A stretch of DNA of 64,000 nt from an uncultured Candidatus Saccharibacteria bacterium (GTDB lineage Bacteria > Patescibacteriota > Minisyncoccia > SW-4-49-11). Under the pieces are notes generated by a model, which made no database searches, was not told where the DNA came from, and worked only from the letters and a program-made list of their open reading frames with translations. The stretch's first letter is position 1. Every line of letters starts with the position of its first letter. Location of the stretch: the NCBI GenBank assembly GCA_964633865.1, contig CAZWIJ010000001.1, forward strand, positions 2,352-66,351, read 5' to 3'. A program made the position numbers and the translations under genes. Below are positions 33,805-58,615 of this stretch, one piece after another.

Positions 33805-35853
33805 ATGAGTGTAAAATTAGCTAGTCAGTACAAAATTTCAATAAATAATGAAGACAAAATATATCTTTTGAGACACTTACAAGCAATAGAGTCTGTAGAA
33901 ATTGTTACTAATGATAATCCAGAGAGTTTAGGAGAAGAAGAACTTTCATTAAAAAATGAACTGTTGGATAAATTAGATAGAATTGATAAATCTATTGATA
34001 TATTCCTTAAAATTAATCCTATTAAAAAAAATATTTTATCTGGATTACTTGACTTTAGAGTAAAAATTAAAGAAGAAGAGTTCAAAAAAATTTCTTCGAA
34101 TCAAGATGATATAATCTCAGAAGTAGACTATATTAATAAAATATCAGAAGAAAAAGAAGATTTATATCTTAGAAATAGAATTTTAAAAGATATTATAAAA
34201 AAGGTAGAACCTTTGAAAAATATAGAATTAGATATCTTTGATGATTTTAAGTATATTGATTTTATACCTTTTATGATTGGAGCTAATAGATCTCATTATG
34301 TGCTAGATCAAATTGAGAATCTATTCCCTAATACTATTTTTGAATCTATCAAAAAAATAGATAAAGAATATGTATATTTGATTGCTTTCCAAAAAAATGA
34401 TTATAAAGAAATTTATGAATTCATATCTAGTCAAGCAACAGTCTTTAACTTTAGATTAAATAATCTAGGGAATTCTTTTTATGAGATTTATAATAGAGCT
34501 TCTGATGAAATAAAGTTAAATCAAGATAAAATAGAATCTATTTCCAAAGATTTAAGTAAAACTAAAATTAATTTAGAACAACTTTATACTATAAAAGATA
34601 TTTTGAAGTCACAAATTAATATTATAGATGAATTACATAATTTCAATTCTATTAATAATGAAATGTCTTATATAAGGGTTTGGGTATCTGAAGAAAATAT
34701 TCATAAAATTTCTGTTAAGATTAAGAGATTGTTCAAAAACTATACCTTTATTGAATCTTCAACTATAAAAGGAGATGCTCCTGTAATTATGACAAATAAT
34801 AAGCTTGTCTCTAATTTTGAATCAATAACTAAAATTATGGGTATGCCTAAAGGTGGTTCTATTGATCCCACTTTCTTTGTAGCATTTTTCTTTACCTTTA
34901 TGTTTGGGTTAGCTTTATCTGAGGCTGGATATGCTGTGGTCTTAATTTTGATCGTTGGATTTTTATTAACCCTCAAAAATCTAAAAGAATCTATCAGGGC
35001 ATTTATGTTAGTTATATTATTCTCTTCTATTACTACTTTGATAGTTGGAGCTATGTTTGGTAGTTGGTTTGGAGTAGTTCCTGATGATGTTATTATTTAT
35101 GAAGATGCATTACCTCATATGAAGTTTTTGATAGATATTGGATTAATTGGTGTATTGCAAAAATTACAAGTATTGAATCCTATGAGTACTGTGGTTTCAT
35201 TAATGGTATTTACTGTAGTAATTGGTTTAATTCACTTGTTACTAGGACTCATTTTGGGGTTTGTCCGAGAATATTCTAGAGGGAATGCTCTTAATGGTGC
35301 ATTAGATTCATTGTCGTGGTTTTTCTTAATTATACTTGGATTATTTACTACTCTTGCTAGGCAAAATTTACTAGGGGAAGGATTATATTATTTATCATCA
35401 ATAATGATTTTGATATTGATTGGATATAGTGTAATTATGATATTTGTTTTGGGTCGTGATGCAGGTAAAAATATTTTTCTTAAATTTGGAAAAGGTTTAT
35501 ACGATATGTTCTTTGGTATTATAGGTTATCTTTCCGATACTTTATCTTATACTAGGTTGATTGCTCTTGGTTTGGCTACAGGTATTATTGCTGGAGTTGT
35601 GGGTACTTTAGCTAGATTAGCTGGAGAGGGATTAGTAGATAAAGGTGGAGTTTATATTATTATAGGTTATATAATTATGACTGTGATATTCATATTTGGG
35701 CATATCTTTAATATTGCTCTTAATGTTTTGGGTACCTATATTAATGTAGGAAGACTTCACTTTGTAGAATTTTTTAGTAAGTTTTTTGAATCTGGAGGAA
35801 GAGAAATATCTTATCTAAAAAGATCTCAGGAATTTATTAAGATAGAAAAGTAG
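33805..35853 (+). CDS. ntpI: V-type ATP synthase subunit I (a)
   Basis: 682 aa. A ~350-aa hydrophilic N-terminal half is followed by a polytopic C-terminal half, and it is encoded directly upstream of the proteolipid. Confidence 0.75.
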   Translation: MSVKLASQYKISINNEDKIYLLRHLQAIESVEIVTNDNPESLGEEELSLKNELLDKLDRIDKSIDIFLKINPIKKNILSGLLDFRVKIKEEEFKKISSNQDDIISEVDYINKISEEKEDLYLRNRILKDIIKKVEPLKNIELDIFDDFKYIDFIPFMIGANRSHYVLDQIENLFPNTIFESIKKIDKEYVYLIAFQKNDYKEIYEFISSQATVFNFRLNNLGNSFYEIYNRASDEIKLNQDKIESISKDLSKTKINLEQLYTIKDILKSQINIIDELHNFNSINNEMSYIRVWVSEENIHKISVKIKRLFKNYTFIESSTIKGDAPVIMTNNKLVSNFESITKIMGMPKGGSIDPTFFVAFFFTFMFGLALSEAGYAVVLILIVGFLLTLKNLKESIRAFMLVILFSSITTLIVGAMFGSWFGVVPDDVIIYEDALPHMKFLIDIGLIGVLQKLQVLNPMSTVVSLMVFTVVIGLIHLLLGLILGFVREYSRGNALNGALDSLSWFFLIILGLFTTLARQNLLGEGLYYLSSIMILILIGYSVIMIFVLGRDAGKNIFLKFGKGLYDMFFGIIGYLSDTLSYTRLIALGLATGIIAGVVGTLARLAGEGLVDKGGVYIIIGYIIMTVIFIFGHIFNIALNVLGTYINVGRLHFVEFFSKFFESGGREISYLKRSQEFIKIEK

Positions 35854-35976
35854 ACTAAATATAATTTATGTTTTCTTTTCCAATGATATTTAGGTTGATA
35901 TTATTGGAAAGGAAACCAAAATAAATTTGTTTGGATTGCCTTATATAAAAATTTATTAGCTTATCAAAATATTAAT

Positions 35977-36453
35977 ATGGAATTATTAGGAATTAGTTTA
36001 GCAGTTTTAGGTGCAGCTTTATCTGCTGGTCTTGCTGGAGCTGGATCAGCTATGGGAGTTGCTAAATCAGCTGAAACTGGCGCAGGTCTAGTCTCAGAAG
36101 ATGAATCGCAATTTGGTAATGTTCTTTTGTTATCTGCATTACCTGGATCCCAAGCTATTTATGGTCTTTTAGCATCTATTATAATCTTACAAAATACTGG
36201 AGTTTTAACAGGTGAATTTGTAAATCTTCCTTGGCAGAATGGTTTATTATTAGCTTTTGCTGGAATACCTGTTGGGGTAACTTGTTTGTTATCTGGTAAA
36301 TACCAGGGAAATGTTATTGCTAGTGGGATGCAAGTTATCGCTAAAGATAAGAGTAAAATTGGACAAGTGATTATTTTAGCTGCTTTGGTAGAAACTTTCG
36401 CGGTCTTTGGATTATTGGTTTCTATTTTGATGATAAATGGAGTAAAAATCTAA
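35977..36453 (+). CDS. ntpK: V-type ATP synthase proteolipid subunit K (c)
   Basis: 158 aa, four helices, Gly/Ala-rich 'LGAALSAGLAGAGSAMGV'. A duplicated c-ring hairpin. Confidence 0.8.
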   Translation: MELLGISLAVLGAALSAGLAGAGSAMGVAKSAETGAGLVSEDESQFGNVLLLSALPGSQAIYGLLASIIILQNTGVLTGEFVNLPWQNGLLLAFAGIPVGVTCLLSGKYQGNVIASGMQVIAKDKSKIGQVIILAALVETFAVFGLLVSILMINGVKI

Positions 36454-36466
36454 TATATAAATTTAT

Positions 36467-37006
36467 ATGTCTATTCAAAATATAGTTAAAGCAAAGATTG
36501 AAAAAGATTTAGAAGAGTTAGAATTGTATTATCAAAAAGAGTTGAAGTTAATTTCTGAGAATTTTGAGCTTAAGACTAAAAACTTAGAAAGAAAATATAA
36601 TAGTGAAATTTCTAATGTGATTGATTCTGAGTTAAATATGCATAAGTTTTTGAATAAAAGAGATTCAAAATTTAAAAATGAATCAAATTTTAATAAATCT
36701 CTAGATAAGATTTATTCTGATATGATAATTGAAATAATTGAAAGTAAGTTTGGTAAGAATATTTTGAATAAATTTGTAAAAGATTTGGATAAAAATAGTG
36801 AGTTTATAGTTAAGGGTAAATTATCTGACAAATTAATTTCTGAATTAAAAGCTTTAGGTTACTCTAATTTCGAAAAACACCAAGATGAATCTATTCTTGG
36901 TATAGTTTTGTATCAAGAAGAAGATAGATATCTAGAATTTGATTTAGAAGATATTATAGAGAATGTAAAGAAGTTAACTTTAAATAAAGTTATTGAATCA
37001 TTATAA
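36467..37006 (+). CDS. ntpE: V-type ATP synthase subunit E
   Basis: 179 aa. A long N-terminal helix plus a C-terminal globular part 'GIVLYQEEDRYLEFDLEDII'. Position in the operon also fits. Confidence 0.6.
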   Translation: MSIQNIVKAKIEKDLEELELYYQKELKLISENFELKTKNLERKYNSEISNVIDSELNMHKFLNKRDSKFKNESNFNKSLDKIYSDMIIEIIESKFGKNILNKFVKDLDKNSEFIVKGKLSDKLISELKALGYSNFEKHQDESILGIVLYQEEDRYLEFDLEDIIENVKKLTLNKVIESL

Positions 37007-37008
37007 TT

Positions 37009-37941
37009 ATGGCTATGCAAATACCAATAGCTAGCCTATCAGCTAGCTTGATAGTAAAATTTCACAAGATACCAAAGTATCAGGAGCTACTTACAATTAT
37101 TTCTGAGAGTAGTTTTTTTGATGATATTGATTCTTTTTTGAAGAAATATCTAGTAATTGATAATACTCAAAATTTAAATCTTTCTTATTTTAATGAATAT
37201 TATGAAAAAGAAATAAATTATATCATTAATAGATTGCCAGATGAAAGTTTCTCTAAGATGTATTTAGTGTTACAAAAAGATTATGAGACATTAAAAGGTA
37301 TTGTATTATTTTTAAAACAAAATAATCAGGAATTTGGTAAAGATAATTTTGTAAAGGTGATGTCTGAGATTTCAGATAAATTAGTTTATAATCAAGATTT
37401 TAAGAAATATTTATCTAAAAAAGAATATGCTATAGAAAGATCAGTAGAGGTATATGGTTTAATCGCTTATTTAGAAGAAATTTATCTTACAATTTTGTCA
37501 GAGAAATTTAAAGATGCTCCTAAATTTTTTCAAAATTATCTGGAAGCAAAAATAAATACATATTATTTTATGTCAGCGATAAAGAGGACAGAACTTGGTC
37601 AATCTAAAGATCATATCCTAAATCATATTATTTCGATTCCTGGAGTTTTCTCTGTTTTAGAAAAGATGACATTTGGAGATATTGTGGGTGAGATTGGAGA
37701 ATATCTAAGATTGCCTATAGAGCAAATAAATGTAATTAATATTGAAAAAACTTTACTTATGAATGAAGTTAAAGCTATTAATCAAGCTAATTATCTTGGT
37801 CTTCATGATGAGAAAATTTTGCAATATATAGTTACTCTCAAATACTTTGGTAATAATATTAAATTAGCTTATCTCAAAAAAAGCATTAAACTACACGATA
37901 CTGAATTATTTGCTCGTATGATAGATTATAATTTTATATAA
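37009..37941 (+). CDS. ntpC: V-type ATP synthase subunit C (d)
   Basis: 310-aa helical protein in the canonical position between E and F. Confidence 0.6.
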   Translation: MAMQIPIASLSASLIVKFHKIPKYQELLTIISESSFFDDIDSFLKKYLVIDNTQNLNLSYFNEYYEKEINYIINRLPDESFSKMYLVLQKDYETLKGIVLFLKQNNQEFGKDNFVKVMSEISDKLVYNQDFKKYLSKKEYAIERSVEVYGLIAYLEEIYLTILSEKFKDAPKFFQNYLEAKINTYYFMSAIKRTELGQSKDHILNHIISIPGVFSVLEKMTFGDIVGEIGEYLRLPIEQINVINIEKTLLMNEVKAINQANYLGLHDEKILQYIVTLKYFGNNIKLAYLKKSIKLHDTELFARMIDYNFI

Positions 37942-37945
37942 ATAT

Positions 37946-38266
37946 ATGAATTCAAAAAAGTCGATATTTATAGGAAAAAAAGAAACAGTGACCTTGTTTA
38001 GAATTTTTGGTTTTGAGACAATTTCTTTAGATGAATTTGATGAGAAAGAAATCTTTGATAAGATAATTTCTGATAAAGATAATATAGGTTTAATTTTAAG
38101 AACAAATCAATTGGTTTTTTCTAATAAACAAAATGAAACTATTTTTGAACTTAATATTCCAATTATTGAAATTCCTATTGCTGAAGGTGAATCAGAATTA
38201 CAAATTAATGATTTACAGAATTTAATAGAAAAAGCTGTCGGAATGAAATTAGACTTTTTGAAGTAA
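37946..38266 (+). CDS. ntpF: V-type ATP synthase subunit F
   Basis: 106 aa. 'IFIGKKETVTLFRIFGFE' matches subunit F N-termini. Confidence 0.6.
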   Translation: MNSKKSIFIGKKETVTLFRIFGFETISLDEFDEKEIFDKIISDKDNIGLILRTNQLVFSNKQNETIFELNIPIIEIPIAEGESELQINDLQNLIEKAVGMKLDFLK

Positions 38267-38316
38267 AGATTTTGTTTTTGGATATATATTTATAATTCTT
38301 ATTGTAGGTATATATT

Positions 38317-38333
38317 CGAGAATAAAATTCTCG
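38317..38333 (+). promoter_or_regulatory. intra-operon stem-loop between ntpF and ntpA
   Basis: Perfect 7-bp stem CGAGAAT-aaa-ATTCTCG in a 128-nt intergenic gap, with no T-run after it. Confidence 0.3.
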
Positions 38334-38394
38334 CCAAGTTTGTTTAGCTTGGAATCAAATTAGTTTTATAGGTTGTATTAAAATAAATTGTTAT

Positions 38395-40209
38395 ATGATT
38401 ACAGGATTTATTATTAAAGTATCAGGTCCACTGATTGTGGCTGATCAGATGAAAGGAGCTAAGATGTATGATGTTGTACATGTTGGTCCCCAAAAATTGA
38501 TGGGGGAGATTATTGAAGTAAAACAAAATACTGTTTCCATCCAAGTCTATGAAGAAACAACAGGTTTGATGGTTGGTGATCCTGTTATTTCTACTGGAGA
38601 ACCTTTATCTATAGAATTAGGGCCTGGTCTTTTGACTACTGGTTTGTTCGATGGAATCTTGAGACCTCTTAATTTGATAGCTCGTGAAGTAGAAAAACAA
38701 GGATTTAATTCAGGATATATTAGAAGAGGTATCCAAATTTCATCTCTTGATCGTAATAAAAAATGGGCCTTCAAAGCTATTCTAAAAGAGGGTGATTTTG
38801 TGGTAGCAGGAGATATTTTAGGAACTGTACAGGAAACTGATTTAATACAACATAAAATTTTGGTTCCATTTGGGATAGAAGGTGAATTATCTATGATAAA
38901 AGATGGGGAATTCACTATTTTAGATACAATAGCTAAAGTTGGTGATAGAGAAATAAAAATGATGCACAAATGGCCAGTAAGAAAAGAAAGACCTAAAGTA
39001 AAAAAACATTTACCAACTGTCCCTTTAATTACACAACAAAGAATTATTGATACTTTTTTTCCTATCCCAAAAGGTGGTGCGGCCGCTGTTCCTGGACCTT
39101 TCGGTGCTGGTAAGACGGTTATCCAACAACAATTAGCTAAATGGTCTGATGCGGATATTGTGATTTATGTTGGTTGTGGTGAGCGAGGAAATGAATTGAC
39201 AGATATTTTGGTTGAATTCCCTCATTTGAAAGATCCAAAATCAGGGAAACCTTTAATGGATAGAACTATTGTGATTGCGAATACTTCCAATATGCCTATC
39301 GCTGCCAGGGAAGCATCTGTTTATACTGGAATAACTTTGGCTGAATACTATAGAGATATGGGATATAATGTGGCTATGATGGCTGATTCCACATCTAGAT
39401 GGGCTGAGGCTATGAGAGAAATGTCAGGTAGATTAGAAGAAATGCCAGGAGAAGAAGGTTATCCAGCTTATCTTGGATCAAGAATTTCATCTTTTTATGA
39501 AAGAGCTGGTTTGGTAACATGTCTTGGAAAGGATCAAAGAATGGGATCAGCAACTATAGTAGCTGCTGTATCCCCAGCTGGAGGAGATATGTCAGAACCA
39601 GTTAGTCAAGCAACCTTGAAAGTGACAAAAGCTTTTTGGGGATTGGATGCTGGCCTCGCTGCAAAAAAACATTTCCCATCTATCAATTGGCTTAATAGTT
39701 ATAGTTTATATGTAAATTCTGTTGAAGATTATTTTATAAAAGAAGCTGGAGCAGATTGGGGAGAACTTAGAGATTTAGCTATGTCAATTCTACAAAGAGA
39801 GAATGAATTAGACGATATTATCAAGTTAGTAGGAATGGAAGCACTTTCATTACAAGAAAAAATTCTTTTGGATACTGCTAAAACTTTGAGAGAAGATTAT
39901 TTGCAACAAAATGCTTTTGATGATGTAGATGCTTTTTCCTCAACTCAAAAAATGTATTTGATGTTAAAATGTATTTTGACTTTCCATCAAGAAGCTATTA
40001 ATTTGGTTAACAAAAATAAGGATGTAGAAATAAATGATATTATTGATTTAGAGTTGAAGAATGATATTTCTCGTTTAAAACAGATAAAAGAATCTGATTT
40101 AGATCAAATGGAAAATATTTTATCTAGAATTACAGAGGAATTACCTTTAGTTAAAAATGATGGAGATAATCAAGAATTTGGTTTAAATAAAGTTGTAAGT
40201 GGAATATAA
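38395..40209 (+). CDS. ntpA: V-type ATP synthase catalytic subunit A
   Basis: Walker A 'GPFGAGKTV', the A-subunit non-homologous insert, and 'MADSTSRWAEA'. Confidence 0.9.
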   Translation: MITGFIIKVSGPLIVADQMKGAKMYDVVHVGPQKLMGEIIEVKQNTVSIQVYEETTGLMVGDPVISTGEPLSIELGPGLLTTGLFDGILRPLNLIAREVEKQGFNSGYIRRGIQISSLDRNKKWAFKAILKEGDFVVAGDILGTVQETDLIQHKILVPFGIEGELSMIKDGEFTILDTIAKVGDREIKMMHKWPVRKERPKVKKHLPTVPLITQQRIIDTFFPIPKGGAAAVPGPFGAGKTVIQQQLAKWSDADIVIYVGCGERGNELTDILVEFPHLKDPKSGKPLMDRTIVIANTSNMPIAAREASVYTGITLAEYYRDMGYNVAMMADSTSRWAEAMREMSGRLEEMPGEEGYPAYLGSRISSFYERAGLVTCLGKDQRMGSATIVAAVSPAGGDMSEPVSQATLKVTKAFWGLDAGLAAKKHFPSINWLNSYSLYVNSVEDYFIKEAGADWGELRDLAMSILQRENELDDIIKLVGMEALSLQEKILLDTAKTLREDYLQQNAFDDVDAFSSTQKMYLMLKCILTFHQEAINLVNKNKDVEINDIIDLELKNDISRLKQIKESDLDQMENILSRITEELPLVKNDGDNQEFGLNKVVSGI

Positions 40210-40232
40210 TTTAGTAATTAATTTATTTTTAT

Positions 40233-41627
40233 ATGAAAATATGGAATCAAACAATTAAAGAGATAGCAGGTTCTCTTGTAATTGTAGAAAAAGTTAAAAA
40301 TGTTGCTTTTGAAGAGATTGTAGAGATAAAAGATAGTGAAGGTAATATTCGTAGAGGAAAGGTTTTAGAGGTAGATAGAGATATTGCTGTTGTCCAATTA
40401 TTCACAAGTACACAAGGTTTGGAAAATAAAGATGCTCAGGTAGCATTTTTGGGTGAAACACTAAAATTCGGAGTAAGTGAAAAAATGTTAGGAAGAATAT
40501 TTACAGGTTCAGGTGAAGTCAAAGATGGAGGACCTAAGATTTTAGCTAATGAATATTTAGATATTAATGGATTTCCGATTAATCCAGGTATGAGAGCTTT
40601 TCCTAGTCAATTTATTCAAACTGGAATTTCTACAATTGATGGCTTAAACTCTTTGGTTAGAGGTCAAAAGTTACCTATTTTTTCTGGATCAGGATTACCT
40701 CACAGCGAATTAGCAGCTCAAATTGCAAAACAGGCAAGAGTTGTAAAAGTAGAGAATGGAGAAAAAGTTGTAGAGTCAGATGAAAAATTTGCAGTTATTT
40801 TCGCTGCTATGGGTGTCACATTTGAAGAAGCAGAATTTTTTATCAGTTCTCTTGAATCAACTGGAGCTATGGAAAGAGCAGCTGTATTCCTTAATCTAGC
40901 TAATGATCCAATTGTGGAAAGAATAACTTTACCAAGATTAGCCTTGACTTTAGGAGAATACTTAGCTTTTGAGAAAGATATGCATGTTTTGGTAGTTATG
41001 ACAGATATGACAAATTATGCGGATGCACTAAGAGAAATATCAGCTTCCAGAAAAGAAATTCCTGGTAGAAGAGGATATCCTGGTTATATGTATACAGATC
41101 TTGCAACTTTATACGAAAGAGCAGGATTAATTCAAGGAAGAAAAGGCTCTCTTACCCAAATCCCTATTTTGACAATGCCAGATGATGATAAACAACATCC
41201 AATCCCTGACCTTACAGGATATATTACAGAAGGTCAGATTATGGTAGATAGAAAATTACATAATCAAGGTATTTATCCCCCAATCCAACCGATAGGATCC
41301 CTATCTAGAATAAAAGTAGATAAAAAAGAAACAAGAGAAGATCTGTCAGCAGTTCAAGATCAAATGTCATCCTCATATGCAAAAGGTATGGAGATAAAAG
41401 AACTTGCTTTGATTTTGGGTGAATCTGCTCTTTCTGATACAGATAAAGCTTATATGAAATTTGCTGATGAATTTGAAAAGAAATATATTAATCAAGCTAA
41501 ATCAGAAAATAGAAGTATAATAGAAACTCTAGATATTTCTTGGGAATTGTTATCTATCTTACCAAAGAAAGAATTAAAGAAAATCAAGCCTGAATTTATA
41601 GATAAATATTCTAAAAATCTAGCTTAA
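40233..41627 (+). CDS. ntpB: V-type ATP synthase subunit B
   Basis: '[15 protein letters not shown]' and '[22 protein letters not shown]' are B-subunit signatures. Confidence 0.9.
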
Positions 41628-41636
41628 ATTAAATTT

Positions 41637-42248
41637 ATGTTGATAAAACCAACTAGACAAGAATTATTAAAATTTAAGAAAAAACTTAAAACAGCATCTC
41701 GAGGACATAGACTTTTGAAGGATAAAAGAGATGGGTTAATTCAAAAATTTTTGGCTATCATAAAAGAAGTAGTCACTATAAGAAAAGAAATTAATAAAGA
41801 TTTATTAAAATCAATTGAGCTTTTTTATTATGCAAAAGCTAAAATTTCTAATTTGGAGTTAGATGAAATAGAAGAAAAATCTAATTCTGAAATAAAAGTA
41901 ATAAAAACAGATTCTAACTTTATGGGAGTTAATATTCCAAAGCTTGACTTTAATGTTGAAGGAGACCCATTTAATTATGGTGTTTTGAATATTCCAAAAG
42001 ACTTAGATCAATCAATCCTAACTTTTTATAAAGTCCTGCCTAAATTAATCAAACTGGCTGAACTAGAATATACATCCAAAAAATTAGCTGATGAGATAGA
42101 GAAGACCAGGAGAAGAGTAAATGCTCTTGAATATGTTATTGTTCCCGAGTTAAAAGAAAATATGAGATTTGTAGCTGGAGTATTGGAAGAAAGATCCAGA
42201 CAAGAAAAAGTTACAATTATGAAGGTAAAAGAGATTTTGGGATTGTAG
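41637..42248 (+). CDS. ntpD: V-type ATP synthase subunit D
   Basis: 203 aa, N-terminal 'MLIKPTRQELLKFKKKLKTASRGHRLLKDKRDGLI'. Confidence 0.8.
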   Translation: MLIKPTRQELLKFKKKLKTASRGHRLLKDKRDGLIQKFLAIIKEVVTIRKEINKDLLKSIELFYYAKAKISNLELDEIEEKSNSEIKVIKTDSNFMGVNIPKLDFNVEGDPFNYGVLNIPKDLDQSILTFYKVLPKLIKLAELEYTSKKLADEIEKTRRRVNALEYVIVPELKENMRFVAGVLEERSRQEKVTIMKVKEILGL

Positions 42249-42308: not shown

Positions 42309-42932
42309 TTAGATATATAAATCTAATATTTTAATGTCTCCAATTGAACCAGTAACTTTTGATTTCATAAAGCGACTAAATTTATATTTCTTTATGCAAT
42401 AGTTAAAGACATCTAATTTAGTTGTGATATCACAAGGTATTTCTAATTTAAAATTAGAATTTGTATCAAGTTTTTTAGCAAAATTTTTTGAGATTAAAAA
42501 TTCTGCATAGGCATTATCTAATAATACTTTATTTTCATCTGTAAATGGATTTTTAGTTTTGCCTTGAATAAATTGATCAAAAAGTATCTTATTAATTATT
42601 AGGTAGTGAAAAGATACAATATACTCATTAAAAACAAGACCCATTTTTTCACAGAACTCTTTACTCCCTATAAATTCAGAATACTTATTTATCTTAGTTA
42701 AGTGTTCAATAAAATTAATTGCTCTGTCTAAATCTCGAATATAATCTTCTTTTTGATACATAATATATATAGGGCTTTTTACATCACCCAAACCAATTCC
42801 TGGAATAAGTAATTGTCCTAGAACTACTAATTCTCGTTCATTCATACTTAAAATTTTTGGCATTTCACTGTCCAAAAATTTATTAAAAGGTTTTTTTTCT
42901 GAAAAAAGATCAAACTGAATTAAATTAGCCAT
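42309..42932 (-). CDS. hypothetical protein
   Basis: 207-aa ORF. No motif recognised. Confidence 0.4.
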   Translation of the reverse strand: MANLIQFDLFSEKKPFNKFLDSEMPKILSMNERELVVLGQLLIPGIGLGDVKSPIYIMYQKEDYIRDLDRAINFIEHLTKINKYSEFIGSKEFCEKMGLVFNEYIVSFHYLIINKILFDQFIQGKTKNPFTDENKVLLDNAYAEFLISKNFAKKLDTNSNFKLEIPCDITTKLDVFNYCIKKYKFSRFMKSKVTGSIGDIKILDLYI

Positions 42933-43131
42933 AAATAACTTATCTCATAAGCTAAGTTTACTGATATAAATTATCATAATAATAAGTTTTTGTCAATATA
43001 GGTTGGCATAAAATTCTGTGCCTATTGATTTTATTGAATTTATAAGGTATAATGCTCTCAAATGAGAAAATATAAAATAAATACTTTAAAATATTGTCTT
43101 AAATTTTGTACAAGTTTTATTTTAATTATAT

Positions 43132-44670
43132 ATGTATTTTTATCAAAATAAACCATCTCAAAGGCCAGCAACTATTTTTCTTGTTATATTTTTTGCTGCT
43201 TTAGGAGGATTTTATTATATATCATTTTTACTTAATCCTAATAATATAGGGAATTTATTACCTTATATTCTTGTTCTGATTGCTGAACTTTTTTTTGTTA
43301 TACAATCATTGATTGTATTTTGGACTATGTTGGTTGGGGAAGAAGACCCTAGAGATTATAAATATTTTGACACTCAAAAGAAAATTATAAAATTGAGTGG
43401 ATTGAAAATAAATAAAAAAATAGCGAAAGTAAATGTTTTTATTACGGTTTATGGAGAACCTTTAGAAGTTATAAAAAAGACTGTTAAATCTGCTAGAGAT
43501 ATGAAAGGTAAGCACCAAACATATATTCTCGATGATGGTAAATCAGATGAAGTGAAAGATTTAGCAAAAAAATTGAAAGTAGAATATATAAGAAGAGATA
43601 ATAATGAAGGAGCTAAAGCTGGAAATATCAATCATGCATTGAGTATTACAGAAAGTGACTTTTTTGTTATATTTGATGCAGATCATGTTCCTAATAAAAA
43701 TTTTTTATTAGAGACTCTTCCTTTTTTTTATGATGATAATCTTGCTTTTGTACAGACACCACAACATTTTGAAGAAATGGCTAATTTTATATCAAAAGGA
43801 AGTGGTTATGCTCAAAGAGTTTTTTATACTTGGATAAATAAAGGTAAAAATAAATTTAATTCGGCCTTTTGTGTAGGAACTAATGTTATATTTAGAACCT
43901 CAATAATAAATGATATGGGAGGTATTTATCAAAAATCTAATTCTGAGGATATATGGACTTCTATTTTGATTCATGAAAAAGGATATAAATCTATATTTAT
44001 TTCTGATATTTTAGCTGAAGGACAAGCTCCAGAAACAACTAAAGCTTATGTAAAACAACAACAAAGATGGGCTACTGGAGGGTTAGAGATATTTTTTAAA
44101 CACAACCCTTTATTTGCTAAATTGTCATTAGATCAAAAAATACAATATCTTAGTACTTCTATGTTTTATTTTAGTGGTGTAGCAAGTTTATTTTTATTTA
44201 TTTTACCTTCAATTTATATATTTTTTGGTTTAATTCCTATACAAAGTGAATTTGGTATTATAGATTGGGCTATCCGATATTCTGTTTTCTACATATTACA
44301 GATTTGTGTGGCATTTTATTTTATGAAAGGATTCCGTTGGGAGACTATGATTGTAGCTTTTGTTTCTTTTCCTATATACCTAAAATCTCTTTGGAATGTA
44401 ATTACAGGGCAAGATGAAAAGTGGAATGTTACCAACCGTAAAGATGAAGATAGTCCTTTTAATTATATTGTTCCTCAAATTGTATTGTTTTTATTTCTTA
44501 TAATCACAACTGTTATAGGTGGGTTTGATTTGTTTTGGTATAGAAATAGTGGGATATTGGCTGCTTTCATTTGGAATTTAATAAATACATTTATATTCGG
44601 GTTCTTTTTATGGATAACATATAAGGAAAAAAGACTTATGTCTATACAAGATAATCAAATAATCAGATAA
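43132..44670 (+). CDS. processive family-2 glycosyltransferase (cellulose/curdlan/chitin-synthase-like, QxxRW type)
   Basis: N-terminal TMs. 'ILDDGKSDE' (DDG), 'FVIFDADH' (DxD), 'FCVGTNVIFR' and 'QQQRWATGG' (QxxRW), then C-terminal TMs. Confidence 0.75.
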   Translation: MYFYQNKPSQRPATIFLVIFFAALGGFYYISFLLNPNNIGNLLPYILVLIAELFFVIQSLIVFWTMLVGEEDPRDYKYFDTQKKIIKLSGLKINKKIAKVNVFITVYGEPLEVIKKTVKSARDMKGKHQTYILDDGKSDEVKDLAKKLKVEYIRRDNNEGAKAGNINHALSITESDFFVIFDADHVPNKNFLLETLPFFYDDNLAFVQTPQHFEEMANFISKGSGYAQRVFYTWINKGKNKFNSAFCVGTNVIFRTSIINDMGGIYQKSNSEDIWTSILIHEKGYKSIFISDILAEGQAPETTKAYVKQQQRWATGGLEIFFKHNPLFAKLSLDQKIQYLSTSMFYFSGVASLFLFILPSIYIFFGLIPIQSEFGIIDWAIRYSVFYILQICVAFYFMKGFRWETMIVAFVSFPIYLKSLWNVITGQDEKWNVTNRKDEDSPFNYIVPQIVLFLFLIITTVIGGFDLFWYRNSGILAAFIWNLINTFIFGFFLWITYKEKRLMSIQDNQIIR

Positions 44671-44682
44671 TTTTTTAATTTT

Positions 44683-45366
44683 ATGAATAGGAAATCAATT
44701 GTTCAGTTTGCTAAATGGTTTATAGTAGGTACTATGATTACTACTGTAGCTTTATTTTGGAAGTTAGAAAGACAATCTTATATTGTCTCAAGTCAAGGAT
44801 CATTACAGTCTAATTTATATACTATCGGAATAGATTATACTGGCGTTATTCTAAATATATTAGTTAAAGCGGGAGATAGAGTATCTAAAGATCAACCTTT
44901 AGTTGTTTTGAAGAGCTCAACTCTGATTGATAGACTAAATGAATCTAAAATATCAAAAGATGATTTGATTTATGATCTTACTAGTGATAATAATATATTA
45001 TTAAAAGCACAAAATTCAGGTGTGGTAGATAAAGTTTTGTTTACACAAGGGTCATTTATCCCTGCTAACTCAGAGATTTTAAATATTGTAGATGAAGGTT
45101 ATTTTGTTACCGCTAAATTTACAATACCAGAATCTGACTTTTATTTGATAAAAAAAGATATCCCTGCTATTATGTCTATAGGAAATGATACTTATAAAGG
45201 ATCTTTACAAGATTTTGAGATTTTGGAATCTGAAGATTCATTGATTTATATTGAAGCAACAATTATACCTGAAAATGTGCAAGAGTTTCAAGAGTACCGT
45301 ATAGGTAGCCCAATTACAAGTAGATTATTGATAAAATCCAATCCATTTAGAAATTTTTTTAAATAA
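44683..45366 (+). CDS. membrane-anchored HlyD/biotin-lipoyl-like adaptor protein
   Basis: One TM. 'YTGVILNILVKAGDRVSKDQPLVVLKSS' is a lipoyl-like hairpin as in membrane-fusion proteins. Confidence 0.4.
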   Translation: MNRKSIVQFAKWFIVGTMITTVALFWKLERQSYIVSSQGSLQSNLYTIGIDYTGVILNILVKAGDRVSKDQPLVVLKSSTLIDRLNESKISKDDLIYDLTSDNNILLKAQNSGVVDKVLFTQGSFIPANSEILNIVDEGYFVTAKFTIPESDFYLIKKDIPAIMSIGNDTYKGSLQDFEILESEDSLIYIEATIIPENVQEFQEYRIGSPITSRLLIKSNPFRNFFK

Positions 45367-45387
45367 ATATATTATTATACCACACAT

Positions 45388-47367
45388 ATGAAAAACAAAT
45401 TTTTTATATTTTTAACATTAATTTTTCTAGGAACTATAGTTTATTTAGTTGTTTCTAATAAGGATTATAAGAATGACTTTAGTAGTAATAATAATGAATC
45501 TTATTCTATTGATAAAAGCAATATGCCTGAAAAGATATTTTATACTGAGAAAATTTTTTCAACTTTAACTCCCAAAACTAATAGTTGGATGTCCTCAGCA
45601 TTTTTTAAAAAAGATTCAGAGCCACTATTTGTTTATCCTTATAGTCTTGATTTTACTGAAAAAGGATTTACTTTAAATATCCCTAATATTACATCAACTA
45701 ATAATACAATTTTTGGTTCTCATAATCCAGAAATTGAAATTTCTTTTGGAGAAAATTTAGAAACACATGTTATTGATTATGGAGATATAGATGCTACATT
45801 TGAATTAAGAGACAATTCTCAGAAAAATATAGCACAAATTAGAACTATAAGAGGAGTTCCTTATATTTATATAAAGGTTATTGAAGGGAATAAAATTAGT
45901 ATTAAAGCTAATTCTATAAAAAAAGATGACGATATATTTCAAATAAATAATCTTTTCAGAGTATATAATATAGATAATATTATATCTGAAGACTCAGGGA
46001 ATTTATCTTTTACACCAAATAAAGATCAAAATATAATATTTGGAGCTATTCCAACAAACAAAAAACACTCTTATATTGATAAATATTCAGATACTGTTAT
46101 TTCTGACATATCTGTAGAAACTAGTCTTAGTGATTCTGAAGTGAAAACTAAATATATTTTTGATACTGTAGATAATAAAGAAATATTATTTGGTCAGTTA
46201 AATGATGCCGAACCCATAAATGAGAATATAATTCCAGCAGAAATATCTTATAAAAGTATTAAAGGTAATTTAATAAATTATATAGGAAAAGAATTTGAAT
46301 TTAAAGATAAATTATTTGATCCTATAACCAAATTAGATCCAACAAAATATAATGATGATCAAAAAAATCTTATCAAAGCAGCTCTTTTAGACGATTTGGC
46401 AACAACTAACTTTAAAGATGATACTTATTATGGCGGTAAAACAATGGCACGACAAGCTTATCTGTATGAAATAGCTAGAGATTTTGGTTGGACAGATATA
46501 TACCCCTCAATTATGAATCCTCTAAAAAAAGAATTAACTAGCTGGTTATCTGATAATGGTTCCAGAGGATTCTTCTATGAACCTAATATTAAGACTTTAG
46601 TAGGTGTTCCAAGTTCTTTTGGATCTGAATTAGCTAATGATCATCACTTTCACTATGGATATATAATCTATGCATCATCTGTTATGGCAGAATATGATCA
46701 AGATTTCCTGAATACATATAAGGATAAAATATCTTTGATTTTAGATGATTATGGATCTTTAAAAAGAGACTCTGAAACTTTCCCATATTTGAGAGTATTT
46801 GATCATTATGAATTACATAGTTGGGCTTCAGGTTTCGCTTTGTTTCAAGATGGTAATAATCAAGAATCAACTTCAGAAGCTATAAATAGTTGGTATGCTA
46901 TGTATAGATGGGCACTTTTAACAAAAGATACTGAAAAACAAAATATGGCTAAATGGCTATATTCCCAAGAAATTAATTCAACATTATCTTTTTGGCTTGA
47001 TATAGAAAATATAAAAGAAGATACACTATATGAGGCACCTATTGCAGCTCTTGTTTGGGGAGGTAAGATAGATTATGCAACTTGGTTTAGTGCTACAGAT
47101 GAAGCTAAATTAGCTATACAGTTATTACCTTTAAACTTCGCAACAGAATATTTAAAAGAATATCCATCTATGATAGAAAAAAATATTGATTATATTAAAT
47201 CTAGATCTAGTAGTGGAGAATATACAGAGTTTAACGATCTTTTATTGACTTATGAATCAACCATAAACTCAGATGTAATATCCAAAATTCAGAATATAAA
47301 TTCCTCTAACTTTGATGATGGGAATTCTAAAACAGCATCTCTTGTATGGGCATTACAATTTAAGTAA
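45388..47367 (+). CDS. secreted glycoside hydrolase, GH81-like (endo-beta-1,3-glucanase family) candidate
   Basis: Signal/TM. 'NDHHFHYGYIIYA' and, about 75 aa downstream, 'QESTSEAINSWYA' (an ExxxE pair). I recall both as GH81 catalytic-region motifs. ~660 aa fits GH81. Confidence 0.45.
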   Translation: MKNKFFIFLTLIFLGTIVYLVVSNKDYKNDFSSNNNESYSIDKSNMPEKIFYTEKIFSTLTPKTNSWMSSAFFKKDSEPLFVYPYSLDFTEKGFTLNIPNITSTNNTIFGSHNPEIEISFGENLETHVIDYGDIDATFELRDNSQKNIAQIRTIRGVPYIYIKVIEGNKISIKANSIKKDDDIFQINNLFRVYNIDNIISEDSGNLSFTPNKDQNIIFGAIPTNKKHSYIDKYSDTVISDISVETSLSDSEVKTKYIFDTVDNKEILFGQLNDAEPINENIIPAEISYKSIKGNLINYIGKEFEFKDKLFDPITKLDPTKYNDDQKNLIKAALLDDLATTNFKDDTYYGGKTMARQAYLYEIARDFGWTDIYPSIMNPLKKELTSWLSDNGSRGFFYEPNIKTLVGVPSSFGSELANDHHFHYGYIIYASSVMAEYDQDFLNTYKDKISLILDDYGSLKRDSETFPYLRVFDHYELHSWASGFALFQDGNNQESTSEAINSWYAMYRWALLTKDTEKQNMAKWLYSQEINSTLSFWLDIENIKEDTLYEAPIAALVWGGKIDYATWFSATDEAKLAIQLLPLNFATEYLKEYPSMIEKNIDYIKSRSSSGEYTEFNDLLLTYESTINSDVISKIQNINSSNFDDGNSKTASLVWALQFK

Positions 47368-47437
47368 AAATTTAAAAAATACACAAAAATAAAATTTATG
47401 ATATAATATAGAAGATAAATCTAAAAAATATATTCAT

Positions 47438-48562
47438 ATGAAATTATTATTAATACCAATAGTTATTGCATTAGTAGTATTTATAGCGACTGCTATTACT
47501 TTTGTTTTGCCAAGAACTCTAAATTTAGCTAATAGATCTAATACAACAATTAGTGAAACAGCTTCAGTCAGTAACTTAAAACTAGGAGGAGTTTTAAAAT
47601 CATTTAATAGGGGAGAGACCTTTGATATAAAGGTTAATATTCCAAATCAAGATAAGATGATTTTAGATCAACCTATTCAAAACATGTACTTTGGTGCAGA
47701 TAACAAAACTCTTTATGCCATTACTCCAATTGGAATATATTATTCTAAAAGTAAAGCTGAGAGCTGGGAGTTAGCTTTTGATGCAACAACTTATCCAATA
47801 GATTCATTTCAATTTAATCTTAATAATAATGATGAGATCTATGTAGGAACATCTTTTGGAGGAAAAGCTAGATTAATAAAATATAATATAATAAATAAGA
47901 ATTATGAAGAGTTATATCTAGAAGCTAGTCAAGGAGTTTTGATTAATTATATCTTTCTAGATAAAAATAATACTAATTATATTAAAATAATTTTGACAAG
48001 CGGAGCTACTTTAGTAACAGATAATAATGGATTAGATTGGCGATATGAAGGTGTTTTTCCTGATACAATCCAAAGCATATATATTGATTTCAAGAATCCA
48101 AACAATATTTACTTTTTAGGAGGAACGGGTTTATATAGATCAATAGATGCTGGAAGAAATTTTACACTACTGACTCCAGGAGCTAATCCTGATCCTAGAA
48201 ACAAGAGATATAAATTTACTGTTTATTCTTATGCTGTAAATCCAAACAATAATAATGAGATTTATGTTGGTGGAGTCTCTCAAATATTAAGGTCTATTGA
48301 TGGAGGGGCTACTTGGGAACCAATTAATATTTTGACTCCAAATTCAAATATTTTGATTCGATCAATACAAGTTCATCCTTCCAATTCAAACATTATTTAT
48401 TATTCAGGGGCTTCTGTTCTGTATGTATCTACTAATAGAGGAGCAAATTGGACCCCTCTAGAATTACCCTTAAATTTATATGTCAATAAAATCTTAATAG
48501 ATTCAGAAAACAGTGATATAATATACTTAGGTACAACAGTACCAACGACTAAGAAAAACTAA
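47438..48562 (+). CDS. membrane-anchored BNR/Asp-box repeat beta-propeller protein
   Basis: N-terminal TM. Asp-box-like repeats 'YRSIDAGRNFT', 'LRSIDGGATWEP' and 'YVSTNRGANWTP'. Confidence 0.5.
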   Translation: MKLLLIPIVIALVVFIATAITFVLPRTLNLANRSNTTISETASVSNLKLGGVLKSFNRGETFDIKVNIPNQDKMILDQPIQNMYFGADNKTLYAITPIGIYYSKSKAESWELAFDATTYPIDSFQFNLNNNDEIYVGTSFGGKARLIKYNIINKNYEELYLEASQGVLINYIFLDKNNTNYIKIILTSGATLVTDNNGLDWRYEGVFPDTIQSIYIDFKNPNNIYFLGGTGLYRSIDAGRNFTLLTPGANPDPRNKRYKFTVYSYAVNPNNNNEIYVGGVSQILRSIDGGATWEPINILTPNSNILIRSIQVHPSNSNIIYYSGASVLYVSTNRGANWTPLELPLNLYVNKILIDSENSDIIYLGTTVPTTKKN

Positions 48563-48572
48563 TTATACTATT

Positions 48573-49127
48573 ATGGTAAATTCAACTGAACTAAAAAACT
48601 CATTACAAAAAACGATAGACTCATTTCGTAAAGAGTTATCAGGTTTAAGAACAGGTCAAGCTAGTATAGATTTGGTAGAAGATATTTTGGTAGAGTATTA
48701 TGGAGTACCTACTCCTATGAAGCAAATTGCTGCAATTAGTATCCCAGAGCCAAGAACTATATTAATTACTCCTTGGGATAAATCAGCAATAGCTCCAATA
48801 GAAAAAGCTATCTTAAAAACAACTCATTTAGGAATAAATCCTGTATCTGAAAGTTCTAGTGTTAGATTAAATATTCCTACTCTAACAGAAGAAAGAAGAA
48901 AAATTTTAGTAAAAGAAGCTTCTACTACAACAGAAAAATTTAGAGCAGAAATTAGAGTTATAAGAGATGATTATAGAGGAAAAGTTAAAGATCAATTAAA
49001 GAAGAAAGAAATCTCTGAAGATGAGCAAAAAATTGATTTTGATAATATTGAAAAAATGATTAAGGAATATAACAATGAGTTAGAGGTTATTTTTAAACAG
49101 AAAGAAAAAGATATTTTAGCAATATAG
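48573..49127 (+). CDS. frr: ribosome recycling factor
   Basis: 'SFRKELSGLRTGQASIDLVEDILVEYYG' and 'RLNIPTLTEERRKILVK' are RRF hallmarks. Confidence 0.85.
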   Translation: MVNSTELKNSLQKTIDSFRKELSGLRTGQASIDLVEDILVEYYGVPTPMKQIAAISIPEPRTILITPWDKSAIAPIEKAILKTTHLGINPVSESSSVRLNIPTLTEERRKILVKEASTTTEKFRAEIRVIRDDYRGKVKDQLKKKEISEDEQKIDFDNIEKMIKEYNNELEVIFKQKEKDILAI

Positions 49128-49131
49128 TAAT

Positions 49132-50217
49132 ATGGATATATCTACAATTTTGATATTTATTTTGATTTTGTTTGTGGTTGTAATTGGTCATGAGTTTGGT
49201 CATTTTATTGTTGCAAGGTGGTGTGGAGTAAAGGTTGAAGAATTTGGGTTTGGATTACCTCCTAAATTATTTGGATATAAGCCTAAAAAAAGTGATACAG
49301 AATATACTTTTAACTTATTACCTTTAGGAGGATTTGTGAGACTCTTTGGAGAAGAAGGTGAATTTAAAAATGATTCTAGATCATTTGCATCCAAAACAAA
49401 GTTACAAAAAATAGCTATTTTAGTCGCAGGAGTAACTATGAATCTTATAATTGCTATCATAGTATTTACTATTGTTGGTATGATGGGAAGTGTAACACTA
49501 ATAGAAGATACTGATATTGGTAAAGTAAAAGATCCTGCTATATATGTAGTTGATGTTGCAAAAGAATCACCAGCTGGTGAAAAAGAAATTATGTTAGGAG
49601 ATAAAATAATTTCTATTAATGGAACTGTTATATCTAATAACTCTGATTTACTTAATATTATCAATGATAATAAAGGAAAAGAAATTGATTTAGTTCTAGA
49701 AAGACAAGGGGAATCTCTATCTAAAACACTTTTAGCAAGAGAAAATCCACCAGAAGGGCAAGGTTCTATGGGAATAGGTTTTTCTTTAGGAGGATTATTG
49801 AAGCTTAACTTTTGGGATGCTTTTGTTAGTTCACTAACAAGAATATACTTCATTTTTTATATGACATTTTATACTTTGTGGCAATTATTTATTGGTATTT
49901 TTGTTGATACTCAATTACCAGCAGGAGCTAGTTTCACAGGTCCAATTGGAATTGTAAAAGAAGTTGGTAATGCTCAAGCTATGGGAATTTCTTATTTATT
50001 GATGATTACAGGAATGATAAGTACTAGCTTAGCTTTCTTTAATATATTACCTATACCTGCATTAGATGGAGGGAGAATTTTATTTATATTAATAGAAATG
50101 ATAAAAAAATCTCCTATAAATAAAGAATTAGAAGCTAAGTTTCATTTGACAGGGTATCTATTATTAATAGGCTTAATGTTATTTATAACATTTAGAGATA
50201 TAATTAATTTATTTTAG
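49132..50217 (+). CDS. rseP: RIP site-2 zinc metalloprotease RseP
   Basis: 'HEFGHFIVAR' (HExxH) in TM1, a PDZ domain and a C-terminal LDG motif 'ALDGGRIL'. Confidence 0.8.
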   Translation: MDISTILIFILILFVVVIGHEFGHFIVARWCGVKVEEFGFGLPPKLFGYKPKKSDTEYTFNLLPLGGFVRLFGEEGEFKNDSRSFASKTKLQKIAILVAGVTMNLIIAIIVFTIVGMMGSVTLIEDTDIGKVKDPAIYVVDVAKESPAGEKEIMLGDKIISINGTVISNNSDLLNIINDNKGKEIDLVLERQGESLSKTLLARENPPEGQGSMGIGFSLGGLLKLNFWDAFVSSLTRIYFIFYMTFYTLWQLFIGIFVDTQLPAGASFTGPIGIVKEVGNAQAMGISYLLMITGMISTSLAFFNILPIPALDGGRILFILIEMIKKSPINKELEAKFHLTGYLLLIGLMLFITFRDIINLF

Positions 50218-57691: not shown

Positions 57692-58615
57692 ATGAATATA
57701 TTAGTAACAGGTGGAGCTGGATTCATTGGATCACATATCGTTGACTCTTTAATTTCTAAAGGTCATAATGTTATAATCATAGATAATATGTTAACAGGTC
57801 AAAAAGATTTAATTAATCCAGAAGCTAAATTTTATCAAGAAGATATAAGAAATTTAGAAGAATTAAATAAAATTATTAAAGAGAATAAAATAGAAAGAAT
57901 TTGTCATCAGGCAGCTCAACTAGATGTTAGGAAATCTGTGGAGAATCCACAATTTGATGCAGAGGTAAATATTATAGGAACTATTAATATCTTCGAATCA
58001 GCTAGACAAAATGGAGTTTCTAAGGTGGTTTTTGCTTCATCAGGTGGAGCAATCTATGGAGATACTGATATTATGCCTACCACAGAGACTCACCCAGAAG
58101 AACCAATTTCTCCTTATGGAATAGCTAAATTGGTAATGGAAAAATATGCACACTATTACAAAGAGATTTACAATTTAGATTATACAGCTCTTAGATATTC
58201 CAATGTTTATGGCCCAAGACAAAATGCTCATGGTGAAGCTGGAGTAGTCGCTATATTCACAGATAGAATGTTGAGAGGAGAGCAGTGCTATATTAATGGA
58301 GATGGAGAAAATACGAGAGATTTCGTATTTGTAGATGATGTTGTAGAAGCAAATGTACAAGCTCTACTAGGAGATTTGACAGGAAAATATAATATTTGTA
58401 CAGAAAAATCAATCTCTATAAATCAGGTATTTGATATTATAAATCAATTATCAGGTGCAAATTTAGAAAGATTATATAGGGAAGCTAAATTAGGAGAACA
58501 AAAACATAGTTGTCTTTCTTATCAAAAAATAAATCAAGCTATCAATTGGCAACCTAAAATTGAAATCACTGAAGGATTAGCTAAAACCGTAGAGTATTTT
58601 AAAAATAAATTATAG
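57692..58615 (+). CDS. NAD-dependent sugar-nucleotide epimerase/dehydratase (GalE-like SDR)
   Basis: 'ILVTGGAGFIGSH', and YxxxK in 'PYGIAKLVMEK'. Confidence 0.8.
   Translation: MNILVTGGAGFIGSHIVDSLISKGHNVIIIDNMLTGQKDLINPEAKFYQEDIRNLEELNKIIKENKIERICHQAAQLDVRKSVENPQFDAEVNIIGTINIFESARQNGVSKVVFASSGGAIYGDTDIMPTTETHPEEPISPYGIAKLVMEKYAHYYKEIYNLDYTALRYSNVYGPRQNAHGEAGVVAIFTDRMLRGEQCYINGDGENTRDFVFVDDVVEANVQALLGDLTGKYNICTEKSISINQVFDIINQLSGANLERLYREAKLGEQKHSCLSYQKINQAINWQPKIEITEGLAKTVEYFKNKL

Follow-up and report, generated by a model that had tools for sequence, protein, structure and literature searches.

What polymer is made by a cluster of consecutive genes in an uncultured Candidatus Saccharibacteria bacterium, and how many of these genes belong to one system? 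The cluster occupies positions 43132–48562 of a 64,000-nucleotide stretch of contig CAZWIJ010000001.1 (assembly GCA_964633865.1), and this whole stretch is called the window below. An earlier note on this DNA had read four consecutive plus-strand genes as a locus for the synthesis, export and trimming of a beta-glucan. The four genes lie exactly where they had been placed and all the motifs quoted for them are present; as a functional reading, a unit of three genes stands, the fourth gene drops out, and a beta-1,3-linked product appears likely from sequence comparison. We propose, with a probability of roughly 0.6, that the genes at 43132–47367 form a synthase-dependent beta-glucan module of a single-membrane cell and that its product is curdlan-like. 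From the first gene through the fourth, the intergenic gaps are 12, 21 and 70 bp:

43132–44670, plus strand: processive glycosyltransferase family 2 (GT2) synthase, 512 amino acids

44683–45366, plus strand: short HlyD-family adaptor, 227 amino acids

45388–47367, plus strand: homologue of glycoside hydrolase family 81 (GH81), 659 amino acids

47438–48562, plus strand: BNR/Asp-box propeller gene, judged to lie outside the module, 374 amino acids

Both the E-values of the matches reported here and open reading frames of such length in DNA of 27% GC are far beyond chance expectation.

The link between the first three genes is far stronger than a reading of one window could make it, because the order GT2, adaptor, GH81 recurs in all 80 loci of Actinomycetota and Patescibacteria in which it could be assessed. 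In a scan that took a single genome for each GTDB species, the synthase family, which is large and consists of proteins at about 50% identity, was found in at least 590 species. The 80 loci most similar to the query come mostly from Actinomycetota (Microbacteriaceae, Demequina, Propionibacteriaceae, Microlunatus, Cellulomonas, Sanguibacter, and Nocardioides), the remainder from metagenome-assembled genomes (MAGs) of Saccharibacteria and Parcubacteria. Four loci from separate look-ups brought this set to 84, and L089 and L090, both closely related to the window, raised it to 86. In 80 of the 84 loci a GH81 gene follows the GT2 gene at a distance of about 1 kb, and the four exceptions stop at a contig edge. 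The adaptor was sought across the 86 loci by phmmer, with the sequence of the window adaptor as the only query and with domain coordinates; it was matched in 84, in 82 of them within the gap between GT2 and GH81. The other two are Demequina loci, which have an adaptor in the gap too, plus a second copy upstream. The genes that flank the triad vary among loci. In Actinobacteria the stop codon of the GT2 gene and the start codon of the adaptor gene overlap (ATGA). That GT2, adaptor, and GH81 are a real functional unit is strongly supported by these data.

Some of these loci show variants of the arrangement. In Demequina L061 (3112–5582, 7920–10459) and L064 (3114–5584, 7920–10471) an extra GT2-adaptor pair stands in tandem upstream of a full triad. 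In an actinomycetotal MAG (L055, 7746–10496) GT2 and adaptor form one uninterrupted open reading frame of 917 codons, which could be a natural fusion, arguing for physical interaction of the two proteins, or the result of a frameshift in the assembly, within the variable C-terminal tail before the ATGA site.

A neighbour-joining tree with BgsA, the mixed-linkage beta-glucan synthase of Sinorhizobium meliloti, as its root places the 15 patescibacterial GT2 sequences in one clade that is sister to the actinobacterial GT2 sequences. Because of this topology, the module is, as far as the tree can tell, old in both Patescibacteria and Actinobacteria and not recently transferred. A recent transfer from host to epibiont was considered and rejected: besides the sister clades, the GC content of the window is 24–33% throughout and that of the glucan locus is the same as in its surroundings. 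A separate case is L083 (CAVPME010000002.1), labelled Terriglobia, whose GT2 falls beside that of Cellulomonas sp. URHD0024 in the tree; this points to mis-binning of an actinobacterial contig or to transfer in very recent times.

What kind of synthase does the first gene encode? By its profile matches it is a BcsA-type processive membrane synthase and yet no orthologue of BcsA, because its best NCBIfam match, TIGR03030 (CelA), reaches 246 bits, far below the curated equivalog cut-off of 699; the match to NF008558 is 199 bits against a cut-off of 992. The processive motif set that had been claimed for it was located in full (DDG at 134–136, DAD at 182–184, SED at 271–273, and QQQRW at 309–313), together with FCVGT at 246, and the catalytic motif residues are unchanged in 12 diverse homologues. 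In Pfam the protein matches GT2 families and Cellulose_synt (4e-15), and among solved structures it matches BcsA (4hg6, 5ej1, and 7lby) with E-values of about 1e-46 to 3e-47. The alignment with 4hg6 extends from the glycosyltransferase core to query residue 497 (chain residue 574), so that the last transmembrane helix is included. Within it, the interface-helix QxxRW and the acceptor segment FCVGT align with their counterparts in BcsA (there FFCGS), and WNVTNRK stands opposite the BcsA gating loop FAVT-AK as a gating-loop-like W-x-V-T (the BcsA consensus is FxVTxK). The topology comprises two N-terminal transmembrane helices, a cytosolic glycosyltransferase domain, and a C-terminal transmembrane channel region, with segments after the catalytic domain at 340–372, 441–470, and 474–496. 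BgsA, taken from pSymB along with its HlyD-family neighbour BgsB, is 33% identical over the catalytic core (E-value 2e-55). A plasmid search with the GT2 returned homologues of BcsA and BgsA as well as gtf-like matches of about 25% identity. The protein is thus shown by homology to be a predicted polymerase and translocator of beta-glucan.

A GT2 family as broad as this one also holds enzymes that make other products, and weak matches to PgaC (5e-15) and NodC (3e-8) were found; they would fit a synthase of a non-glucan polymer (chitin-like, poly-N-acetylglucosamine, or hyaluronan-like) or an enzyme that glycosylates a lipid carrier. We consider this very unlikely. These matches, and that to MdoH, are weaker by tens of orders of magnitude than the matches to BcsA (E-values 1e-47 to 1e-73), the alignment with BcsA takes in the acceptor site and the channel, and the partner hydrolase is a glucanase. 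Nor does the protein cluster with DPM or polyprenol-sugar transferases, which would have contradicted the beta-glucan proposal.

The C-terminus of the synthase, where a PilZ domain or other receptor for cyclic di-GMP (c-di-GMP) might have been expected, ends about 15 residues past the last transmembrane helix, and Pfam gave no PilZ match in the protein at E-values up to 0.1. PilZ is likewise found in none of 120 listed GT2 homologues (precomputed Pfam column). With neither PilZ nor another c-di-GMP module present, control of the synthase is probably transcriptional, or its activity constitutive. Gene calls and Pfam matches revealed no BcsB-like family in the window locus or in eight related loci.

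If BcsB is not the partner, is the second gene? It had been described as an HlyD-like protein with a lipoyl hairpin, of which the HlyD-like and lipoyl part holds and the hairpin does not, the alpha-hairpin being essentially missing. The protein has an N-terminal transmembrane anchor, a split lipoyl (barrel-sandwich hybrid) domain, and then a beta-barrel, and it exceeds the Pfam cut-offs for HlyD_D23 (31.9 bits, cut-off 30), HlyD_3 (27.5, cut-off 22.2), and Biotin_lipoyl (28.6, cut-off 22.1); the same three families are matched by 26 of 26 adaptor proteins. An alignment (A2) was built from the window gene and the genes between GT2 and GH81 of 25 other loci. Compared with the PDB, the adaptor profile matches TriAB (6vej, 5.7e-10), EmrA (8zar, 1.2e-9), MacA, MexJ, and HlyD. 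The two lipoyl halves lie only about 20 residues apart in alignment A2. The transmembrane helix and both lipoyl halves align with those of EmrA, and the EmrA hairpin (about 123–217, some 95 residues) remains unmatched; a membrane-proximal domain is also absent from the adaptor. An AlphaFold2 (AF2) model has one 10-residue helix at the position of the hairpin, at low confidence (predicted local distance difference test, pLDDT, 55.6; four homologues). Because the domains align with EmrA and the hairpin has no counterpart, the adaptor is, on the strength of these profile alignments, a true member of the HlyD family without the part that docks to TolC.

The third gene provides the clue to linkage. 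Its GH81 assignment is borne out by the catalytic domain PF17652, matched at 188.8 bits (cut-off 25.6; E-value 2.2e-55) over profile positions 2–348 of 349, and by solved enzymes (6fop at 2.6e-55, BhGH81 5t49 and others at 1e-46, RmLam81A 4k35 at 1.6e-14). The motifs NDHHFHYGY (417–425) and NNQESTSEA (490–498) align residue for residue with those of solved GH81 enzymes, 6fop and BhGH81 among them. Within them D418, E493, and E497, which from studies of RmLam81A and BhGH81 we take to be the catalytic residues, show no substitution across the 78–81 triad-linked GH81 sequences aligned at those columns. The N-terminal beta-sandwich is less distinct: PF03639 reaches 19.7 bits, below its cut-off of 25.6, at residues 63–119, and a weak alignment with the N-domain of 6fop covers 54–168. 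We conclude that 45388–47367 encodes a GH81 endo-beta-1,3-glucanase homologue whose candidate catalytic residues are intact.

The earlier description of this protein as freely secreted does not hold, since its hydrophobic N-terminus (residues 3–25) looks like an uncleaved anchor. The patescibacterial orthologues have the same N-terminus, and several actinobacterial orthologues have lipobox-like ends (e.g., ...VTGC and ...LTGC). Because of the transmembrane anchor in Patescibacteria and the lipobox-like N-termini in Actinobacteria, GH81 would be held on the surface of its own producer and not released. This tethering bears on whether GH81 might be a foraging or antagonistic enzyme, directed at foreign beta-1,3-glucans such as those of fungal walls or algal laminarin, that lies near an unrelated glycosyltransferase by chance. 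An antifungal-type reading is usual for GH81 in genome papers on Actinobacteria; in a 2026 Frigoribacterium paper, for example, GH81 is held to be possibly antifungal and its role "undetermined" (PMC12823222). For the triad such a role is scarcely probable, given the strict gene order in all 80 assessable loci of two phyla with unrelated flanks, the tether to the membrane of the producer, and the lack of accompanying transporter or downstream catabolic genes in four related loci that were inspected.

How would the three proteins work together? The window encodes a sortase (17329–18129), and by this and by its patescibacterial/actinobacterial type the organism looks monoderm. In such a cell, the GT2 would polymerise UDP-glucose at the cytoplasmic face and pass the nascent chain through the channel formed by its own transmembrane region, as in BcsA. 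The adaptor, with its one-helix anchor, would assemble around the outer exit of the synthase, where it may stabilise or activate the enzyme and direct the chain into the zone of the wall, a role that corresponds to that of BgsB, XcsB, and Alg44 in diderms. Its hairpin may have been lost because there is no TolC for docking, and since the host looks monoderm, this loss fits an adaptor role without an outer-membrane duct. From the strict synteny and from these precedents we infer that the adaptor is probably an obligatory outer-face partner of the synthase. The tethered GH81 would then cut beta-1,3 links in the emerging polymer, with polymer release, length control, clearance of stalled chains, or later recovery of carbon as possible outcomes. 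An operon for a synthase-dependent polysaccharide normally includes a gene for a hydrolase of that polysaccharide. By analogy with BcsZ-type and other operon-encoded hydrolases, we infer that GH81 may trim, release, or recover the polymer.

A linear beta-1,3-glucan, forming a curdlan-like capsule or matrix, is the most likely product, because the dedicated hydrolase of the module is always GH81; this assignment, like the functions above, is drawn from sequence. Indirect support comes from Cellulomonas, a known Gram-positive curdlan producer in which each sequenced genome contains two CrdS-like GT2 genes, reported to be 35–39% identical to CrdS, and two GH81 genes (PMC3544764). The re-use of curdlan was called "unclear" in that genome paper of 2013 (PMC3544764). 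The Cellulomonas genome L050 in our set carries the triad. The doubled GT2-adaptor pair of Demequina echoes the two GT2 and two GH81 genes per Cellulomonas genome.

Several points weigh against the proposed beta-1,3-glucan module. The synteny counts cover the 80 loci most similar to the query, out of at least 590 species. The AF2 model of the adaptor is weak (see its pLDDT above), so that its architecture rests on profile alignments, and BLASTP found no significant pairwise similarity between the adaptor and BgsB, for which reason its membership in the HlyD family rests on profiles as well. Furthermore, no sequence feature tells whether a synthase makes beta-1,3, beta-1,4, or mixed linkages. 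A mixed-linkage glucan is made by the BcsA-like RiGT2 of a Gram-positive bacterium (PMC10374906), and BcsA-like enzymes are thus capable of mixed linkages.

This last observation leads to a variant in which the same module makes cellulose or a mixed-linkage (1,3;1,4)-beta-glucan, with GH81 limited to the 1,3 links or shifted in its specificity. The best-scoring named relatives of the GT2 are indeed cellulose synthases, and BgsA, to which it is 33% identical, makes a mixed-linkage product and likewise pairs with an HlyD-type adaptor. We nevertheless regard this variant as unlikely. The active-site motifs of GH81 are fully canonical, and all characterised GH81 enzymes known to us are endo-beta-1,3-glucanases, specific for beta-1,3 links. 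To our knowledge, cellulose operons encode endoglucanases of the GH8, GH6, or GH5 type (e.g., BcsZ and CslZ), not GH81, which counts against cellulose, and bgsBA, the precedent for a mixed-linkage product, has no associated hydrolase. The curdlan-like beta-1,3-glucan therefore remains our preferred product.

How does the proposed module compare with known systems? In BgsBA of S. meliloti, a BcsA/CrdS-like GT2 is encoded beside an HlyD-family adaptor for the synthesis of a mixed-linkage beta-glucan; production is lost when a transposon is inserted in bgsB, and it depends on TolC too (PMC13438883). The gene order is reversed there (bgsB, then bgsA), and BgsB, with 410 amino acids, is a complete adaptor in its architecture and acts together with TolC in a diderm cell, whereas the window adaptor has 227 amino acids and no hairpin. 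The C-terminus of BgsA binds c-di-GMP, unlike that of the window GT2, and bgsBA has no hydrolase gene. The cyanobacterial Xcs system, to which the earlier note had rightly pointed, comprises a BcsA homologue (XcsA), an HlyD-like protein and TolC; in Thermosynechococcus the latter two replace BcsB and BcsC, and a dedicated glucanase is present (PMC8892547). The likeness to the window thus lies in a BcsA-type synthase, an HlyD-like partner instead of BcsB, and a hydrolase of its own. The Xcs host is a diderm with a TolC-like exit duct and a BcsZ-type (beta-1,4) hydrolase, whereas the window locus has neither an outer-membrane component nor PilZ and has GH81. XcsA itself carries a PilZ domain.

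With BcsA-BcsB-BcsZ the module shares the catalytic motifs, the QxxRW interface helix, a gating-loop-like segment, the C-terminal transmembrane channel, and an operon-encoded endoglucanase; it differs by the lack of BcsB and PilZ, by two instead of four N-terminal transmembrane helices, and by a hydrolase of GH81. The Agrobacterium crdASC genes resemble it in the predicted class of product, a linear beta-1,3-glucan capsule, and in a GT2 with about seven transmembrane helices that requires accessory genes (PMC10819609). Going by their descriptions only, CrdA and CrdC have not been reported as HlyD-like or GH81, and the host is diderm. Alg8-Alg44 likewise joins a GT2 polymerase to a single-pass protein with an outer domain similar to the membrane fusion proteins MexA and HlyD, but Alg44 has a cytosolic PilZ domain, the polymer is alginate, and export proceeds through AlgK/AlgE of a diderm. 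RiGT2 of Romboutsia and Gtf/Tts of lactic acid bacteria and of pneumococcus type 37 are membrane GT2 enzymes of monoderms that make 1,3-containing beta-glucans (PMC10374906). These stand alone, with no adaptor or GH81, and are far more distant in sequence; RiGT2 moreover needs its PilZ. On this evidence, the module is distinct from the known synthase-plus-adaptor beta-glucan systems Xcs and BgsBA in its monoderm host, its hairpin-less adaptor, its GH81 partner, and its lack of a c-di-GMP receptor.

Does the fourth gene belong to the locus, as had been proposed? Its product is membrane-anchored like the other exported proteins of the locus, and its gene adjoins that of GH81 on the same strand, 70 bp on. 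In Pfam it matches BNR/Asp-box, Sortilin-Vps10, and PSII_BNR families, and an AF2 model (pLDDT 86; predicted template-modelling score, pTM, 0.81) shows just one propeller, with seven blades and about 325 residues. Foldseek related the model to DAIP, to Ycf48, and to one half of GH74 enzymes, with template-modelling (TM) scores of about 0.6. Together with a sub-threshold match to "F510_1955 family glycosylhydrolase", this weak similarity to GH74 in sequence and fold could favour a four-gene locus in which the propeller, resembling GH74 or a lectin, would act on the glucan by trimming or binding it. GH74 catalysis takes place in a cleft between two tandem seven-bladed propellers. The single propeller of the window, covering about 0.3 of GH74 targets (TMt 0.27–0.34) and about 0.7 of Ycf48, rules out a GH74-like enzyme. 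Membership in the locus is highly improbable on other grounds as well. The propeller is missing after GH81 in 86 of 86 related loci, which include the closest relatives of the window (L089 and L090, with GT2 identities of 81% and 63%), where other genes follow GH81, and no homologue of it was found anywhere in the 84 triad loci. A promoter-like site with an extended -10 element, itself weak, lies in the 70-bp gap between GH81 and the propeller gene.

The propeller belongs elsewhere. Its family is diffuse, annotated as photosystem II stability/assembly factor-like, and the nearest non-identical homologue is 32% identical. In two distant Patescibacteria, homologues that are 24–27% identical to the window protein occur in the order holB-BNR-frr-rseP (L093, 4935–8827; L094, 4910–8927), with no adjoining glucan genes, and in the window (47438–50217) the propeller gene is likewise followed directly by frr and rseP. 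We therefore judge it to be an unrelated conserved neighbour, DAIP/Ycf48-like, that goes with the downstream frr-rseP block. Because frr and rseP directly follow it, the triad sits just upstream of a conserved housekeeping block. In this conserved patescibacterial gene string, whose holB encodes the delta' subunit of DNA polymerase III, a surface propeller is fixed beside genes for ribosome recycling and a site-2 protease.

Upstream of the GT2 gene, a 199-bp gap holds one weak candidate promoter:

43025–43053, plus strand: promoter-like TTGATT-17-TATAAT, about 80 bp before the ATG of the GT2 gene

A promoter scan gave 55 sites where 52 were expected from shuffled sequence, which is not significant; the counts of promoters and terminators together equal the shuffled expectation in such AT-rich DNA and are uninformative. 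An Rfam scan of the 64 kb found no family at gathering score, tRNAs and riboswitches included.

Elsewhere in the window, the glucan module is immediately preceded by a complete V/A-type ATPase operon (33805–42248), of which subunits I, c, F, A, B, and D were detected. Between the two, a 207-amino-acid open reading frame on the minus strand (42309–42932) has no family match and no homologue in related loci. About 10 kb downstream of the module are an NAD-dependent sugar epimerase/dehydratase (57692–58615) and a membrane acyltransferase of the Acyl_transf_3 family (59070–60194), which could modify a surface glycan. Two adjoining plus-strand genes (28554–29360 and 29834–30808) have C-terminal T4SS_pilin domains (E-values 1.5e-6 and 3.8e-11) and may belong to the machinery for conjugation or type IV secretion, of monoderm type, that has been described in Patescibacteria. 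On the minus strand, another large propeller of surface type is encoded at 13855–15789 (644 amino acids; near full-length Beta_propel, PF09826, E-value 2e-131).

What would the module mean for the bacteria that carry it? In the literature searched, the coverage of which was incomplete and which included the Southlakia transposon-sequencing paper, we found neither a GT2-adaptor-GH81 cluster nor curdlan or cellulose synthases in Patescibacteria. Tentatively, and with less confidence than we place in the module itself, we suggest that the triad may be the genetic basis of curdlan-type glucan in Gram-positive bacteria such as Cellulomonas, that it may represent a new class of monoderm secretion in which a hairpin-less adaptor replaces BcsB or TolC, and that in Patescibacteria it may form a glucan coat for attachment to the host or an external carbon reserve that the tethered GH81 can recover. 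If true, this would provide testable candidate genes for both the synthesis and the re-use of curdlan in Gram-positive bacteria. It would also mean that HlyD-type adaptors serve polysaccharide synthases in cells that have no outer membrane, which bears on what the adaptors do in BgsBA, Xcs, and Alg44. As a compact three-gene cassette that is independent of c-di-GMP, the module could be moved into hosts for beta-1,3-glucan production. For the Patescibacteria, whose cell-cell attachment biology is poorly understood, it would add a surface polymer.

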